In this document: piece by piece, positions 1,640 to 20,811 of the stretch | Numbering within the stretch: position 1 is the first letter of the stretch | Layout: each line of letters opens with the position of its first letter | Sequence record: MF327003 | Origin: Shigella phage Sf14 | Length of the DNA stretch: 64,000 nucleotides | Direction: 5' to 3' (one strand) | The notes under the pieces: model-generated | Told to the model about the DNA's origin: nothing | What the model saw: only the letters and a program-made list of their open reading frames with translations | Database searches by the model: none | Program-made: the position numbers and the translations under genes

Positions 1640-3135
1640 CTTCCTAGAATCTTACCAGACATTTAGAACAATAACTCTATAGCTTACTCTATATCCTCTT
1701 ATCAAATCAACTTAAATATAAGCCCATAACCCGAAAGGGAAGGGCAATCCCTAAAACGCTCTATAACGCTCTATACGGGCTTATCATCTCATCTTAAGCA
1801 ATCATATTAACCTACTCTTAAAAGCCCTTCATAGAGCTTTCTAGAGCCTTAAAAGAATCTTATAAGGGTATAAGCTTTATTATCTCGTTAGTATCTTGTG
1901 AATGGTTAAACAGGGGCTATGAGATAGGACTCTATCGAATCCTATTGATAATAGCTTTAAAGTATGCTATGGAATCTAAAAAGAGCCTTAAAAGTAACGT
2001 AAAAGTTAGCCCCCTTTACATTCTCTTAACAAAATCTTAACAAATGCTACATAGTTATGCTTATTAGAGACTTGTTAGCCCCTTGTTAAATCCTTGTTAG
2101 AGGTATGTTAAGAGCTTGTTAGACTCTTTGAAGTCCCTGTATAAGCCCCTAGAAAGCCCTATAAAGAGCTATACAGGTAGTTGGGGTGTAGTTACTAGGG
2201 AGAACCTTAGAAGAGGCTATACAGAGCTATACAGGGCTTTTAAGAGGGCTTTATAAAGAATCACTAAGAAGGTAAGGGAACTATAGACCAAGAGATAGTG
2301 ACCATGTTAAGAGACTGTTAAAAAGGTTTAGAACTTGTTAATTATCTTAACAAATAACTCTTAAGATTTAACTATTTAGCAACTTATAAGCAACTTGTTA
2401 GACCCTTGTTAGTAGTGTTACAGAATGGTTAAGCTCTTGTTAGTTCTGTTAAGAAACTGTTAAGAACTCTGAAGAGATGTTAAGAGCTTGAGAGAGTTGT
2501 TAAGAGATTGTTAATGATATTTTAAGATTTTGCAAAGGGGATGTTACAGGGCTGTTAAGGGCTACCAAGCAGATATACATCCTCTGTAGATATTTTTCAG
2601 ATTCTCCAAAGACCCCTAAATAAACACTACCTAGTCTATTTTATAAAAATTTTATAATTCTGAATAACTATCTATACACTATCTTATATAAAACAGGAAT
2701 TAACAGGCTTATAAGATACCTTGTTAGTACCGTGTTAGACCTTGTAGGATAAGCCTTAGAAGGGAATACCTGTTTAGTGTTATATAACAGTCTATATAGA
2801 GGCTTAGTAATACCTAGTGATTCTGCTATATAGGGTACTATCGTTTACCTAGAGATTAAGATGAGTATAGGGGCTTCTAAGGGGCTAGGAAGAGGTTAGG
2901 AAGGTGATTGTATAGGGTTGATTAATGGGAGGCTTAGAAGGCTTTATAGAGGGCTATATAGAGAGCACTATTTAGAGACTAAGAGGCTATATAGATACTG
3001 TATAATACTATATAGAGATGATGCTTAGAGAGGGTGTTTAGAAGGGTATAGATATTTTATCACATATCATGGTGACCCAAGATGAACGGAGTGAATCCCA
3101 AATTTTATAAAAATTATAAATTTCGTAAATTTTAC
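1640..3135. repeat. repeat-dense AT-rich non-coding region (TGTTAAGA / CTTGTTAG / CTATACAG / CTATATAGAG unit families)
   Basis: no ORF of 60 aa or more on either strand; many short direct repeats, densest 2060-2520 and 2930-3030. Confidence 0.7.
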
Positions 3136-3140
3136 TCAAT

Positions 3141-3161
3141 AAAAAGCCCCAATTAAGGGGC
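3141..3161 (-). terminator. intrinsic terminator for leftward unit
   Basis: GCCCC-AATTAA-GGGGC hairpin; on minus strand followed by U-run (A5 at 3141-3145). Confidence 0.65.
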
Positions 3162-3170
3162 TGTATAGTC

Positions 3171-17145: not shown

Positions 17146-17161
17146 ATTTTAGGAGATTCCT

Positions 17162-17371
17162 ATGAAGCCTTATGGTAGACATGGTAAAGTTGAAATTGCA
17201 AGTTGTGGCTGCTGTGCAGCGCATGATGAAGAAGATTATTACAAATGGCGTACAGACCATCGTAAACGCTTTCTCAGAAGAGATAAGAAGAGAGCTAGAC
17301 AGGAATCTCAAAAGGATATTGCAGAATTAGTTCAAATGGACAGAGCAGCAACCTACGAAGTTGTTAGTTAG
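17162..17371 (+). CDS. candidate small basic Cys-containing protein (69 aa) inside tRNA island
   Basis: AGGAG 7 nt upstream of ATG; 3' end overlaps tRNA-Arg by ~50 nt so may be spurious. Confidence 0.3.
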   Translation: MKPYGRHGKVEIASCGCCAAHDEEDYYKWRTDHRKRFLRRDKKRARQESQKDIAELVQMDRAATYEVVS

Positions 17372-17397
17372 GGGTTCGAACCCTCTATTCTGCACCA
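17321..17397 (+). tRNA. tRNA-Arg (ACG)
   Basis: acceptor GCAGAAT/ATTCTGC perfect, loop CTACGAA, CCA. Confidence 0.7.
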
Positions 17398-17405
17398 AAT
17401 TTAAT

Positions 17406-17481
17406 AGGGGATTAGTTTACAAGGTTAAAACCTCGGTCTTTGAAATCGAAGAAGATGGTTCAATTCCATCATCCCCCGCCA
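17406..17481 (+). tRNA. tRNA-Gln (TTG)
   Basis: anticodon stem TCGGT/ATCGA loop CTTTGAA, weak 1-72 pair and G73, CCA. Confidence 0.65.
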
Positions 17482-17483
17482 AC

Positions 17484-17562
17484 GCTCCATTACTCCAATT
17501 GGCAGAGAGGCCAGATTTAAAATCTGTGTTATGTATCGGTTCGAATCCGATATGGAGTACCA
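17484..17562 (+). tRNA. tRNA with Leu anticodon TAA, short variable arm
   Basis: acceptor GCTCCAT/ATGGAGT, loop TTTAAAA, A73, CCA. Confidence 0.6.
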
Positions 17563-17568
17563 AATATT

Positions 17569-17644
17569 AGCAGTATAGCATAACTGGCAATGCTCCAGCC
17601 TCTGAAGCTGAAAGATTAAGGTTCAAATCCTTATACTGCTGCCA
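17569..17644 (+). tRNA. tRNA-Gln (CTG)
   Basis: acceptor AGCAGTA/TACTGCT perfect, loop CTCTGAA, CCA. Confidence 0.65.
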
Positions 17645-17647
17645 CTT

Positions 17648-17673
17648 CTAAGGGTTCTTACGAGAGTCCTTAA
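17648..17673 (+). ncRNA. hairpin motif copy C with loop GTTCTTACGAG
   Basis: stem TAAGG/CCTTA (compensatory relative to copy A) around identical 11-mer. Confidence 0.45.
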
Positions 17674-17675
17674 AT

Positions 17676-17752
17676 GTGGCCTTATCATAAATGGATAATG
17701 ACCCATACTGTGAACATGGTCTATACGGGTTCGATTCCCGTAGGTCACCCCA
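17676..17752 (+). tRNA. tRNA-His (GTG)
   Basis: loop CTGTGAA, discriminator C73, T-arm ACGGG/CCCGT, CCA; no encoded G-1. Confidence 0.6.
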
Positions 17753-17758
17753 ATTTCA

Positions 17759-17835
17759 TAGCTCAATTAGCTTATATGGTTAAAGCGCGTGTCTGAAAAA
17801 CATGAGAACAGGGTTCAAATCCCGATGGGCTACCA
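17759..17835 (+). tRNA. tRNA-Phe-like (GAA), irregular D-arm/acceptor register
   Basis: anticodon stem CGTGT/ACATG loop CTGAAAA; acceptor pairing ambiguous. Confidence 0.45.
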
Positions 17836-17851
17836 ACTTTATAGGTGCATA

Positions 17852-18586
17852 ATGAAAGAGATGACAGAACAAAGTAAAGAGATTTTTAATCTTCTTAAAA
17901 CTGGTAATGGTTTCTCAAACCCTCTTATTACTGGTGCAGCAGTTCTTGGTGGTACTATAGCTGCCTCTCAATCATTAGTTAACTCAATTAGTTCTGTAAC
18001 AGACCCAGCTACACAACAGATTTTAGTTGCTGCTGGACTGACAACAGCCTTATTAGGAAGCTTCACAACAAGCCTTGGAAGTACAACTTCAACGACAAGT
18101 ACACTTACTGAGTATGGACAAAAGTCTGTAGATGAGTTTTCACAACGTATGCAAGTAGCTAAAGGTTACTCTAACGTTATGGGAGCAGCAGGTGAACAGG
18201 TTGGATGTACACCGTTTAGCGGTATCATGGGCGTAGCTACCGAGTACGGTAATAAAGCGATGGATTTGATTAATACCTCCATAGACGCTGTAAATAGCGT
18301 TCTAAGCGATTTGCAAGATGCAATCGACCAAGGACTAGATACAATCTCTGAACTCGCTACACAGGCCGTTACAGCGATTAATGAGGGTATTGCAAAGATT
18401 ACTGCATATGCTAACGAAGTAACTCAGATGATTGCAGATGAAGCAGCACTGATTGCAGAATATCTGAAAACAAATATTAATGGTTTCCTTGCGAATGTTC
18501 TACCAAGCTGGTTTGATGATTCATGTAAAACTGGTGTGATTGATACTATCGCAACTCCAGAGATGAAAGAAGCTCTGAACAAATAA
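17852..18586 (+). CDS. glycine-zipper membrane protein with helical C-terminal domain (244 aa), embedded in tRNA island
   Basis: start trimmed to ATG 17852 (track start overlaps tRNA); hydrophobic segments LITGAAVLGGTIAAS and ILVAAGLTTALLGSF. Confidence 0.55.
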   Translation: MKEMTEQSKEIFNLLKTGNGFSNPLITGAAVLGGTIAASQSLVNSISSVTDPATQQILVAAGLTTALLGSFTTSLGSTTSTTSTLTEYGQKSVDEFSQRMQVAKGYSNVMGAAGEQVGCTPFSGIMGVATEYGNKAMDLINTSIDAVNSVLSDLQDAIDQGLDTISELATQAVTAINEGIAKITAYANEVTQMIADEAALIAEYLKTNINGFLANVLPSWFDDSCKTGVIDTIATPEMKEALNK

Positions 18587-18587
18587 T

Positions 18588-18680
18588 GGAAGATTAACCC
18601 TAAAAGGTAAGGGAGCAGTTTGCTAAACTGCCAGTAACCGAGAAATCGGCGTACCAGTTCAAGTCTGGTATCTTCCTCCA
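18588..18680 (+). tRNA. tRNA-Ser (GCT), type II
   Basis: acceptor GGAAGAT/ATCTTCC perfect, anticodon stem GCAGT/ACTGC, long variable arm, CCA. Confidence 0.8.
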
Positions 18681-18686
18681 AATTAT

Positions 18687-18762
18687 GTGTCGGTGTCAGA
18701 AATGGTTATGTGCCTGTCTGCAAAACAGGTTTATGAGGGTTCGAGTCCCTTCCGATACTCCA
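18687..18762 (+). tRNA. tRNA-Cys (GCA)
   Basis: anticodon stem CCTGT/ACAGG loop CTGCAAA, CCA. Confidence 0.75.
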
Positions 18763-18981: not shown

Positions 18982-19188
18982 ATGAACGAGACTAATGTTT
19001 ACAAAGAACTATATGAAACTCAGAAACAGGCTCAGATGCTTCAAGCAACTGTAATGGCTGTGGCTGAACGTTTAATTGTTGCAACTGGTATTAACCCACA
19101 AGAAGCAACGATGGATAAACTTCTTAATTTAGTAGATGAAAAGTTTGGTGTAGAACCTAAACAGGAATCTGAAGAAGTTTCTGAATAA
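18982..19188 (+). CDS. small acidic protein (68 aa) immediately upstream of large terminase
   Basis: GGAG 8 nt upstream; position suggests packaging-associated role (inference). Confidence 0.5.
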   Translation: MNETNVYKELYETQKQAQMLQATVMAVAERLIVATGINPQEATMDKLLNLVDEKFGVEPKQESEEVSE

Positions 19189-19209
19189 TTCTATTTGCAG
19201 AGGTGCTTA

Positions 19210-20811
19210 ATGGACTTAAATGTTATTAAGCAGAAGCGAGTGGAAGATGTAAGGAAAGTCCTAGCAGGTGAGTTGGGGCTTTCTGAAGAAGTAAAAGATA
19301 TTATCAAATCCTTTGGTAAAGACCCCTCTAAATTCCTTCCAACTCAAATTCTGACTTTATTAAGATACACCCCAGACCAAGTAAGACTCATCTTTAAATT
19401 GATGACTGACAAGAACTATGTAGCTCCACAGCCTGGCTCTCAAGAGGTATTCTTGAACACTAATGCTGACTTGGTACTATATGGTGGTGCTGCTGGTGCT
19501 GGTAAGACTGCCGCCCTATTAATGGACTCACTAAGGTTTATTGAAGACCCAAACTACAATGCTGTTTATTTCCGTCGAAATACAACGCAGTTACAAGGTG
19601 GTCTGTGGCCTGCGGCTAAAAAGTTATTTGGTAAGTTTGGTGGAGTTCCACATGAACAGAAAATGACTATTACTTTCCCTTCTGGAGCAACTATCAAGTT
19701 TACTTATTTGGAACTTGAGAAACACTCAGAAGGTCACCAAGGTATCGAATACTCAGCTATTTATTTCGACGAAGGTACACACTTCTCGGCTTCACAGATT
19801 TCATATCTTCAGACACGTTTACGTTCTGGTGCTGAAGGTGACTCATATATGAAAATCTCAATGAACCCAGACAGAGACCACTTTATTTATGATTGGGTAG
19901 AACCTTTCCTAGATGATGCTGGATATCCAGACCCAGAGAAGTGTGGTAGGATTCGTTGGTATGTTATGAATGATGGTGTCATGGTTTCTGATTGGGATAG
20001 AGATAAAATTCTTGAAATGTTCCCTCTTGAGATTCCTCAAACATATACCTTTATTTCCGGTACAATTGATGACAACCCTATTCTAGATTTCCTTGAACCT
20101 AAGTATCGTGGTAAATTAGAAAACAACACACCAGTTAACGTTGCACGTTTACGTTTTGGTAACTGGAAAGCTCGTGCTGAAGGTTCAAACTACTGGCAAA
20201 GACAATGGTGTGAAATTGTTGATAGTGTTCCAGCAGATGTATTTGACGTAAGAGCATGGGACTTAGCAGCAACATTACCTTCTGAGGTTAACCCTAACCC
20301 TGACTGGACAGCAGGTGTTAAAATGGGTAAATCTAAAAAAGATGGTTGCTATTATGTGATTAACGTAGTAAGATTTAGAGATAGACCTTCTGGAGTTGAA
20401 ACACAAATTAACCAAACTGCTGAAGGTGATGGTAAGCGCACAGGTATTTTTATCCCTCAAGACCCCGGCGCTGCTGGTAAATCCTACGCAACATCCCTTA
20501 TTAGAAAACTTGCTGAGAAAGGTTTCCGAGCAAGAGCTAAACCAACAAATAAAGATAAAGTCACCCGTTTTGCGGGTTTCTCTGCTGCTTCTGAGGCAGG
20601 ACTTGTCAAAATTGTTAGAGGCTCTTGGAATGAAGCATATTTTCAAGAACTAGAAGGTTTTTGTGGTGATGGTCGTACTAAGGATGACCAAGTGGATGCG
20701 ACCAGTGATGCTTTCAACAGTCTAAACGAAGTTAAACTATTCAAGCCACCTTCGATGGGTGCTCATACAGATATTATGAAGAGTAATCCATATCAGGGGC
20801 TAAGACGCTAA
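19210..20811 (+). CDS. terL: terminase large subunit
   Basis: Walker A in LYGGAAGAGKTAAL; start moved from TTG 19195 to ATG 19210 with GAGGTG upstream. Confidence 0.85.
   Translation: MDLNVIKQKRVEDVRKVLAGELGLSEEVKDIIKSFGKDPSKFLPTQILTLLRYTPDQVRLIFKLMTDKNYVAPQPGSQEVFLNTNADLVLYGGAAGAGKTAALLMDSLRFIEDPNYNAVYFRRNTTQLQGGLWPAAKKLFGKFGGVPHEQKMTITFPSGATIKFTYLELEKHSEGHQGIEYSAIYFDEGTHFSASQISYLQTRLRSGAEGDSYMKISMNPDRDHFIYDWVEPFLDDAGYPDPEKCGRIRWYVMNDGVMVSDWDRDKILEMFPLEIPQTYTFISGTIDDNPILDFLEPKYRGKLENNTPVNVARLRFGNWKARAEGSNYWQRQWCEIVDSVPADVFDVRAWDLAATLPSEVNPNPDWTAGVKMGKSKKDGCYYVINVVRFRDRPSGVETQINQTAEGDGKRTGIFIPQDPGAAGKSYATSLIRKLAEKGFRARAKPTNKDKVTRFAGFSAASEAGLVKIVRGSWNEAYFQELEGFCGDGRTKDDQVDATSDAFNSLNEVKLFKPPSMGAHTDIMKSNPYQGLRR

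Follow-up and report, generated by a model that had tools for sequence, protein, structure and literature searches.

The non-coding region at positions 1640-3135 of a 64,000-nucleotide stretch of DNA from Shigella phage Sf14 (MF327003; hereafter the window) is very probably the genome-terminus and packaging region of this phage, a Felix O1-like member of the genus Mooglevirus in the Ounavirinae. Homology to the termini of relatives shows positions 2009-2566 to be the predicted short direct terminal repeat (DTR), 558 bp in length, together with its cut sites. A preliminary description of the region had offered a packaging or terminal-repeat boundary among its possible functions, and this option is supported because the DTR of relatives maps to 2009-2566, exactly over the TGTTAAGA array. 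The comparison with related genomes that the same description proposed found the region conserved, with the termini of relatives falling inside it. Judged from its sequence, the window is a Mooglevirus genome, from a Felix O1-like myovirus of the subfamily Ounavirinae; over its first 8 kb it shares 96% identity with Shigella phages Sf13 and Sf15 and 87% with Citrobacter phage Mordin, and it also encodes the large terminase subunit TerL, portal, capsid, DNA polymerase A, primase-helicase and nrdA. Short DTRs are already known for Felix O1-like phages, and the window adds another example.

The position of the repeat was taken from relatives with defined ends. The deposited linear genome of Citrobacter phage HP1, also a Mooglevirus, carries an annotated 570-bp repeat at each end, and its first position aligns to position 2009 of the window. 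The paper on this genome likewise describes direct repeats at both termini (PMC9120918). Escherichia phage ZX4221 and Erwinia phage M7 carry exact end duplications of 591 bp and 444 bp, respectively, and in Salmonella phage UAB_69 the homologous place bears a 618-bp "DTR" annotation; short direct terminal repeats are described in the UAB_69 paper (PMC11350853). The boundaries of HP1 and ZX4221 are identical, with TA/GCCCCCTTAACATT at the left end and GCTGTTAAGGGCTACC/AAGCAGATATACA at the right end (the slash marks the boundary), and those of UAB_69 and M7 depart from them by 2-3 nt. Under the UAB_69 and M7 conventions, the DTR of the window would span 2006/2007-2568. The terminus calls differ systematically (2006-2009 on the left and 2566-2568 on the right), the repeat being shorter by the HP1 and ZX4221 calls than by those of UAB_69 and M7. 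Short overhangs or differences in method could explain this offset.

The sequences at the two boundaries are strongly conserved. In 11 genomes drawn from Mooglevirus, Suspvirus and Felixounavirus, neither TA/GCCCCCTT at the left boundary nor GGGCTACC/AAGCAGATATACA at the right one varies. The right cut-site block (2559-2597), in which GGGCTACC/AAGCAGATATACA is followed by a second AGATAT element, is near-identical in M7, and the 21-mer at the right boundary has exact matches in 28 IMG/VR contigs. Furthermore, the distance from record position 1 to the conserved block is almost the same in at least three Erwinia phage records. The window holds exactly one copy of each boundary sequence, as expected because a concatemer junction or a collapsed assembly would show just that.

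Experimental and read-based determinations in other members of the group give similar repeats. The Felixounavirus UAB_Phi87 has a 608-bp DTR, as determined by Bal31 digestion and run-off sequencing (PMC4837284), and 614 bp separate the same boundary motifs in its genome. PhageTerm assigned a 613-bp DTR to Ro111lw (PMC6454146) and short DTRs to the Kolesnikvirus phages Fifi106 and Fifi318 (PMC11984208). In the Felix O1 paper, short terminal repeats were inferred and transcription units were found to converge between genes 23 and 24. Measured between the motifs, the DTR is 558-658 bp long across ~35 genomes, and that of the window (558 bp) is the shortest among the enterobacterial members examined. 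The predicted repeat resembles the short DTRs of the Felix O1-like Ounavirinae in its position between convergent units, its boundary sequences, its length and its internal motif array.

Several points weigh against the assignment of the region to genome termini and packaging. Duplication at the ends of this phage is deduced from relatives, because no virion DNA or reads of the phage itself were at hand. The HP1 and ZX4221 termini were taken as deposited, and the method by which they were determined is unstated in the accessible parts of these sources. Some deposited "DTRs" are assembly overlaps, among them that of KMM2, whose record opens at window position 2491; we rejected the KMM2 repeat as a physical terminus and regard it as a CheckV-type assembly overlap. 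The independent boundary calls disagree by 2-3 nt, and the measured repeat of UAB_Phi87 and the distance between its motifs are 6 bp apart. The DTR accounts for only 558 of the 1,496 bp, and no role is assigned to the flanks, which are conserved to the same degree. The analogy with phage T7 that underlies the mechanism proposed below is imperfect, as a phage RNA polymerase is lacking and the repeat has no promoter within or beside it. Finally, the arrays are only putative terminase-loading signals.

The predicted DTR contains dense arrays of short motifs. The preliminary description had counted about 15 repeat units between 2060 and 2520, and both the count and the coordinates were accurate. 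We found 17 copies of TGTTA[AG] on the + strand in 2073-2553, a density of 30.5 per kb compared to 1.33 per kb in the window, or ~23-fold enrichment. The densest 300-bp windows for TGTTAR all lie in the region, and no other in the 64 kb comes close. The region also holds 9 of the 14 TGTTAAGA octamers in the window, all six copies of CTATAYAGRG and both copies of TTTTATAAAAATT, and the TGTTAAGA array sits wholly within the predicted DTR. Spacings between the TGTTA[AG] copies are 9, 11, 20, 22, 33 bp and so on, corresponding to ~10-11 bp or multiples of it. A first array (2059-2123, + strand) has five copies at exactly 11-bp intervals (2073, 2084, 2095, 2106 and 2117), and the main array (2305-2558, + strand) has 12 same-strand copies that are 9-60 bp apart, mostly at ~10-11 bp or multiples. 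A second motif family, GCTATACAG / GCCCTATAAAG / GGCTTTATAAAG, occupies 2137-2260 on the + strand, within the DTR, with a 10-bp period. Tandem Repeats Finder reported 13 arrays with periods of 10-13, 20 and 31 bp.

Two inverted copies of the motif are present at the left edge of the repeat (2024-2044, - strand). These TTAACA sequences, at 2026 and 2037, are 11 bp apart and lie 17 and 28 nt from the left terminus, and both offsets were the same in 12 of 12 aligned genomes, Erwinia M7 included. Read inward, the two ends of the DTR resemble each other, with scores of 18-24 compared to shuffle maxima of 15-18, and the inverted TTAACA copies contribute to this inverted similarity. When we searched the DTR for RNA structure, the sole fold was the inverted TTAACA/TGTTAA segment, a DNA-level feature that folds on both strands. 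In ~35 genomes the number of forward TGTTAR copies is 16-22 and that of reverse copies 3-6, with orientation kept; M7 has 11 forward copies. Only the last ~100 bp of the DTR and the right cut site could be aligned by BLAST with Erwinia phages (matches to 2455/2478-2579), and this segment is therefore the most deeply conserved element. The internal phased array and the conserved flanks are undescribed in the Ounavirinae DTR papers cited here, and the accessible part of the PhageMaP paper on Felixounavirus Bas63 is silent on the intergenic region.

The repeat is bordered by two unique non-coding flanks and, beyond these, by convergent terminators. The left flank (1640-2008) is predicted to lie just inside the right-end DTR copy in the virion, and the right flank (2567-3135) to adjoin the left-end copy. 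The left flank, of ~370 bp, and the right one, of ~570 bp, both have a column identity of 0.8-0.9 across three genera. CTCTATA occurs in the left flank at 1675, 1687, 1759 and 1769, and the right flank has four copies of its complement, TATAGAG. Other elements of the right flank are AT-rich segments at 2638-2660 and 3102-3124, a TGTTAG pair at 2719-2739, and TATAGAG/CTATATAGAG motifs in 2792-3017. The bracketing convergent terminators reported in the preliminary description were recovered. On the left, a Rho-independent terminator (1613-1635, + strand; stem 1613-1630, AGCCCC/GGGGCT, followed by a T-run) closes the rightward small-gene cluster, and on the right a second one (3141-3162, - strand; stem 3162-3145, followed by a T-run) closes the leftward gene cluster. 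Both are already annotated in the Mordin and Moogle records. Over 28 nt, the two terminators (1607-1634 and 3141-3168) match each other at 89% in inverted orientation, and an inverted repeat therefore bounds the whole 1.5 kb. Together with the mirrored CTCTATA and TATAGAG motifs, the inverted terminators give the whole 1.5 kb a rough dyad layout. The sequence fits a role of the two convergent terminators in shielding the junction from transcription.

The enzyme presumed to cut in trans at the DTR boundaries is TerL, encoded at 19195-20811 on the + strand (Terminase_6N, 5.7e-42; Terminase_6C, 2e-32) with the portal gene adjoining. Its putative place in the Felix O1-like DTR clade follows the clade assignment of PMC4837284. 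In the Felix O1-like group the small terminase, TerS, is unrecognized, and the Felix O1 paper reports no phage RNA polymerase. Directly upstream of TerL lies a 68-amino-acid open reading frame (ORF; 18982-19188, + strand; PHROG 4397, function unknown), which had no informative match in PHROG, Pfam or PDB and is a candidate terminase partner because of its position beside TerL.

By analogy with T7, the terminase would recognize a concatemer junction holding a single DTR and would cut at both DTR boundaries, and DNA synthesis would duplicate the DTR to leave a copy at each end of the packaged genome. The DTR would thus be present once in concatemers and in the assembly and at both ends of the linear virion chromosome. 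The 17 same-strand TGTTAAGA-type units, spaced at about one helical turn, are most likely assembly sites for packaging proteins that would wrap or bend the DNA, and we consider the same role most likely for the two to three inverted copies at the left edge and for the mirrored CTCTATA/TATAGAG arrays in the flanks. A protein-binding array, which the preliminary description had listed as a separate option, would be compatible with this mechanism.

The concatemer junction of phages T7 and T3 contains a 160-bp terminal repeat, flanking arrays of short repeats and pac elements, and was reportedly described by Dunn and Studier in 1983, by Chung and Hinkle in 1990 and in a review by Fujisawa and Morita. 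The region in the window is like it in having a short exact repeat once per junction, precise cuts at both boundaries, arrays of short units in or beside the repeat and a need for duplication. However, the repeat of the window is 3.5 times longer and has its arrays inside it. Furthermore, there are neither a phage RNA polymerase nor promoters in or beside the repeat, and the junction has instead convergent terminators and conserved non-coding flanks of ~370 and ~570 bp. Its TerL is of the T4-like Pfam type, and TerS is unrecognized in its group. A second parallel is provided by the R sites of lambda cosB and the pacL and pacR boxes of SPP1, which are recognition sites for the small terminase composed of multiple phased repeats. 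As in these systems, many short sites lie on one helix face beside a terminase cut, an arrangement that fits DNA wrapping an oligomeric protein. By contrast, the copies in the window phage and its relatives are far more numerous (17-22), the ends are fixed and carry a terminal repeat rather than being of the cos or headful type, and binding by a protein is only predicted.

Dense phased direct repeats are also expected of an iteron-type replication origin, which the preliminary description had proposed. Such an origin, alone or beside packaging signals, would have a phage or host initiator assemble on the phased repeats and open an adjacent AT-rich segment. The direct repeats, the AT-rich segments and the gene-free setting of the region recall the iteron origins of plasmids and phages. 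In addition, the AT-rich elements at 2638-2660 and 3102-3124 are conserved and fall to a GC content of 0.25, the local GC skew turns from negative to positive near 1850-2100, and an origin could account for flanks whose conservation is otherwise unexplained. However, the units are 6-8 bp cores repeated every 10-11 bp, a length and spacing that do not fit iterons of 17-22 bp, there is no DnaA box in 1640-3135, and the neighboring ORFs have no initiator-like family match. We discarded GC skew as an origin signal: at genome scale it tracks gene orientation, with the opposite sign, and the local skew of up to 0.76 reflects motif composition rather than replication bias. Unit size, DnaA boxes, neighbors and skew all fail to favor an origin, and this option gained no positive support. 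Moreover, the array coincides exactly with the DTR, which already explains its conservation. We therefore regard an origin here as unlikely.

We next consider how well the region is conserved relative to its surroundings. The non-coding query was covered over at least 80% of its length in 208 of 293 phage records, whereas coding flanks of equal length reached this coverage in only 25 of 252 and 11 of 252 records. The region behaves like core sequence among accessory genes and is far better shared than the adjacent coding flanks. Its position is syntenic: Mordin, Moogle, HP1, UAB_69 and Felix O1 have these flanking genes and terminators too. Identity to Felix O1 is 0.79, close to the genome median and below the 0.88-0.92 of the structural genes; the idea that the region is the most conserved DNA of the genome was dropped for this reason. 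These comparisons bear on the possibility that the region is a non-functional spacer where transcription units converge and where repeats arise by slippage. The number of units varies between genomes, small palindromic inserts come and go, and the length of the DTR ranges over 558-658 bp, as might be expected of a spacer. However, a spacer would hardly retain ~79% identity to Felix O1 while the adjacent small genes are poorly shared, nor long blocks that are invariant across three genera, nor a motif number, strand and offset from the terminus that are kept as far as the Erwinia phages. We consider this explanation highly improbable.

If the region is the packaging junction, its boundaries would fix the true ends of the window genome and of many Mooglevirus, Suspvirus and Felixounavirus records that were opened arbitrarily and in which the gap is unannotated. 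The two invariant boundary motifs would make the terminal repeat callable from sequence alone. In degree of conservation the DTR and its ~940 bp of flanks roughly equal typical coding DNA, and their motifs follow an ordered arrangement; the group is therefore tractable for studying how short-DTR phages that lack a recognized small terminase find and cut their ends. How these phages find their ends matters, as Felix O1-like phages serve widely in typing, biocontrol and therapy, and their engineering is now under way.

The left flank contains two potential hairpins that raise the possibility of a different product. The first (1722-1745, - strand) is a nested G+C hairpin, GCCC-ATAA-CCC-GAAA-GGG-AA-GGGC, followed on the - strand by TTATATTT. 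It is identical in the six genomes displayed, nearly invariant in the 11 non-Erwinia genomes aligned and absent from Erwinia M7, and may act as a - strand terminator or as a structural element. The second (1759-1846) is either a long imperfect hairpin or a 2+2 inverted arrangement of CTCTATA and TATAGAG, with pairing that is better kept on the - strand. There it has an alifold z of -7.7, compared to -0.4 on the + strand, and a fold of -20.8 kcal/mol with 28 pairs. Paired cells amount to 97.1% on the - strand and 84.4% on the + strand, and strand-specific wobble favors the - strand at 11 pair positions and the + strand at 2 (p=0.011, a value that needs at least doubling because the better strand was chosen). 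We found no true covariation in this hairpin: only three pairs had double changes, and the shuffled mean was 96.6% paired cells compared to the 97.1% observed. This element could be a protein operator, an RNA or a single-stranded DNA structure.

One could therefore imagine that the flanks give rise to at least one small non-coding RNA or to a single-stranded DNA structure specific to one strand, with the - strand hairpin at 1759-1846 as the candidate and the hairpin at 1722-1745 as its terminator. The candidate is the strongest conserved fold in the region and is strand-asymmetric, with both paired cells and wobble favoring the - strand, and the downstream hairpin with TTATATTT is nearly invariant. 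Against this, the fold lacks real covariation, its p-value is at least doubled after the choice of strand, and its arms are two inverted CTCTATA pairs, which a protein operator explains equally well. By inspection there is no conserved sigma-70 -35 element upstream, Rfam gave no match, and the structure is absent from Erwinia phage M7. On balance, an RNA or single-stranded DNA product appears quite unlikely. Returning to packaging, it is conceivable, though we would put it forward only tentatively, that the region represents an undescribed kind of packaging signal. In such a signal, used by phages that lack a recognizable small terminase, the phased array of 17-22 copies within the DTR, the mirrored flank arrays and the strand-specific hairpin would form a nucleoprotein complex that positions two precise cuts ~560 bp apart, and the - strand hairpin (or RNA) at 1759-1846 would help to duplicate the DTR.

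In Erwinia phage M7 the left flank (~1600-2050) has, by visual count, ~15 phased units of a TTCTAA type in place of CTCTATA; the type of architecture is therefore kept while the flank motif differs. TTAGAAG, the complement of the M7 flank motif, is found at window positions 2756, 2934 and 3038, within the right flank. Also in the right flank, at the window equivalent of 2620-2660, TTGACA (Moogle, Silverhawkium and SUSP1) or TTGATA (Felixounavirus) stands 19 nt upstream of a TATAAT-like hexamer. The -35-like hexamer near 2625 is disrupted in the window, Mordin, ESh21 and HP1. This segment may be a weak rightward promoter that was lost in the lineage of the window phage. A sigma-70 promoter scan found promoter-like sites to be no commoner than in shuffled sequences.

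The region has no apparent coding content. As the preliminary description stated, 1640-3135 contains no ORF of 60 amino acids or more; the largest is 46 amino acids, and the only others of at least 30 are of 31, 36 and 33 amino acids. None of the small ORFs is kept across 12 related genomes, and we ruled out coding potential on these two grounds. The region contains no tRNA genes, all tRNAs of the window being at 14151-18762. An Rfam scan of the region gave a single chance match (E=0.96) and no real match to a curated covariance model. The ORFs on either side belong to no known family, and none could be given a function by family match.

Small palindromes are inserted at different places in different relatives. 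In the window, a sporadic 25-30-bp palindromic mini-insert lies at 1917-1950, with its core GAGATAGGACTCTATCGAATCC at 1921-1942. It has the structure CTATGAGATAG-N3-TCTATCGAATCC, is present at most once per genome and varies in site among relatives. It follows the left terminator in SUSP1, sits in the loop of the left terminator in ZX4221 and in that of the right terminator in HP1, and lies just past the right DTR boundary in Moogle. It was located at 533-554 in L015, 1411-1432 in L006, 568 in L016 (Silverhawkium), 3287 in L028, 1173 in L032 and 1078 in L040; it is absent from Felix O1. The mini-insert resembles a very small insertional element. Another short palindrome, ATTGGTATTGTTACCAATCCCT, is inserted in the left flank of two genomes at different sites, near the window equivalent of 1898 in Silverhawkium and of 1760 in ZX4221.

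Finally, a block of ~14 nt, CCTAAACTGGAGA(A/C)T, which includes the ribosome-binding site, precedes each small rightward gene upstream of the region (170-200, 375-400, 965-990 and 1290-1320). Homologues of these blocks are annotated "repeat_region" in Mordin.

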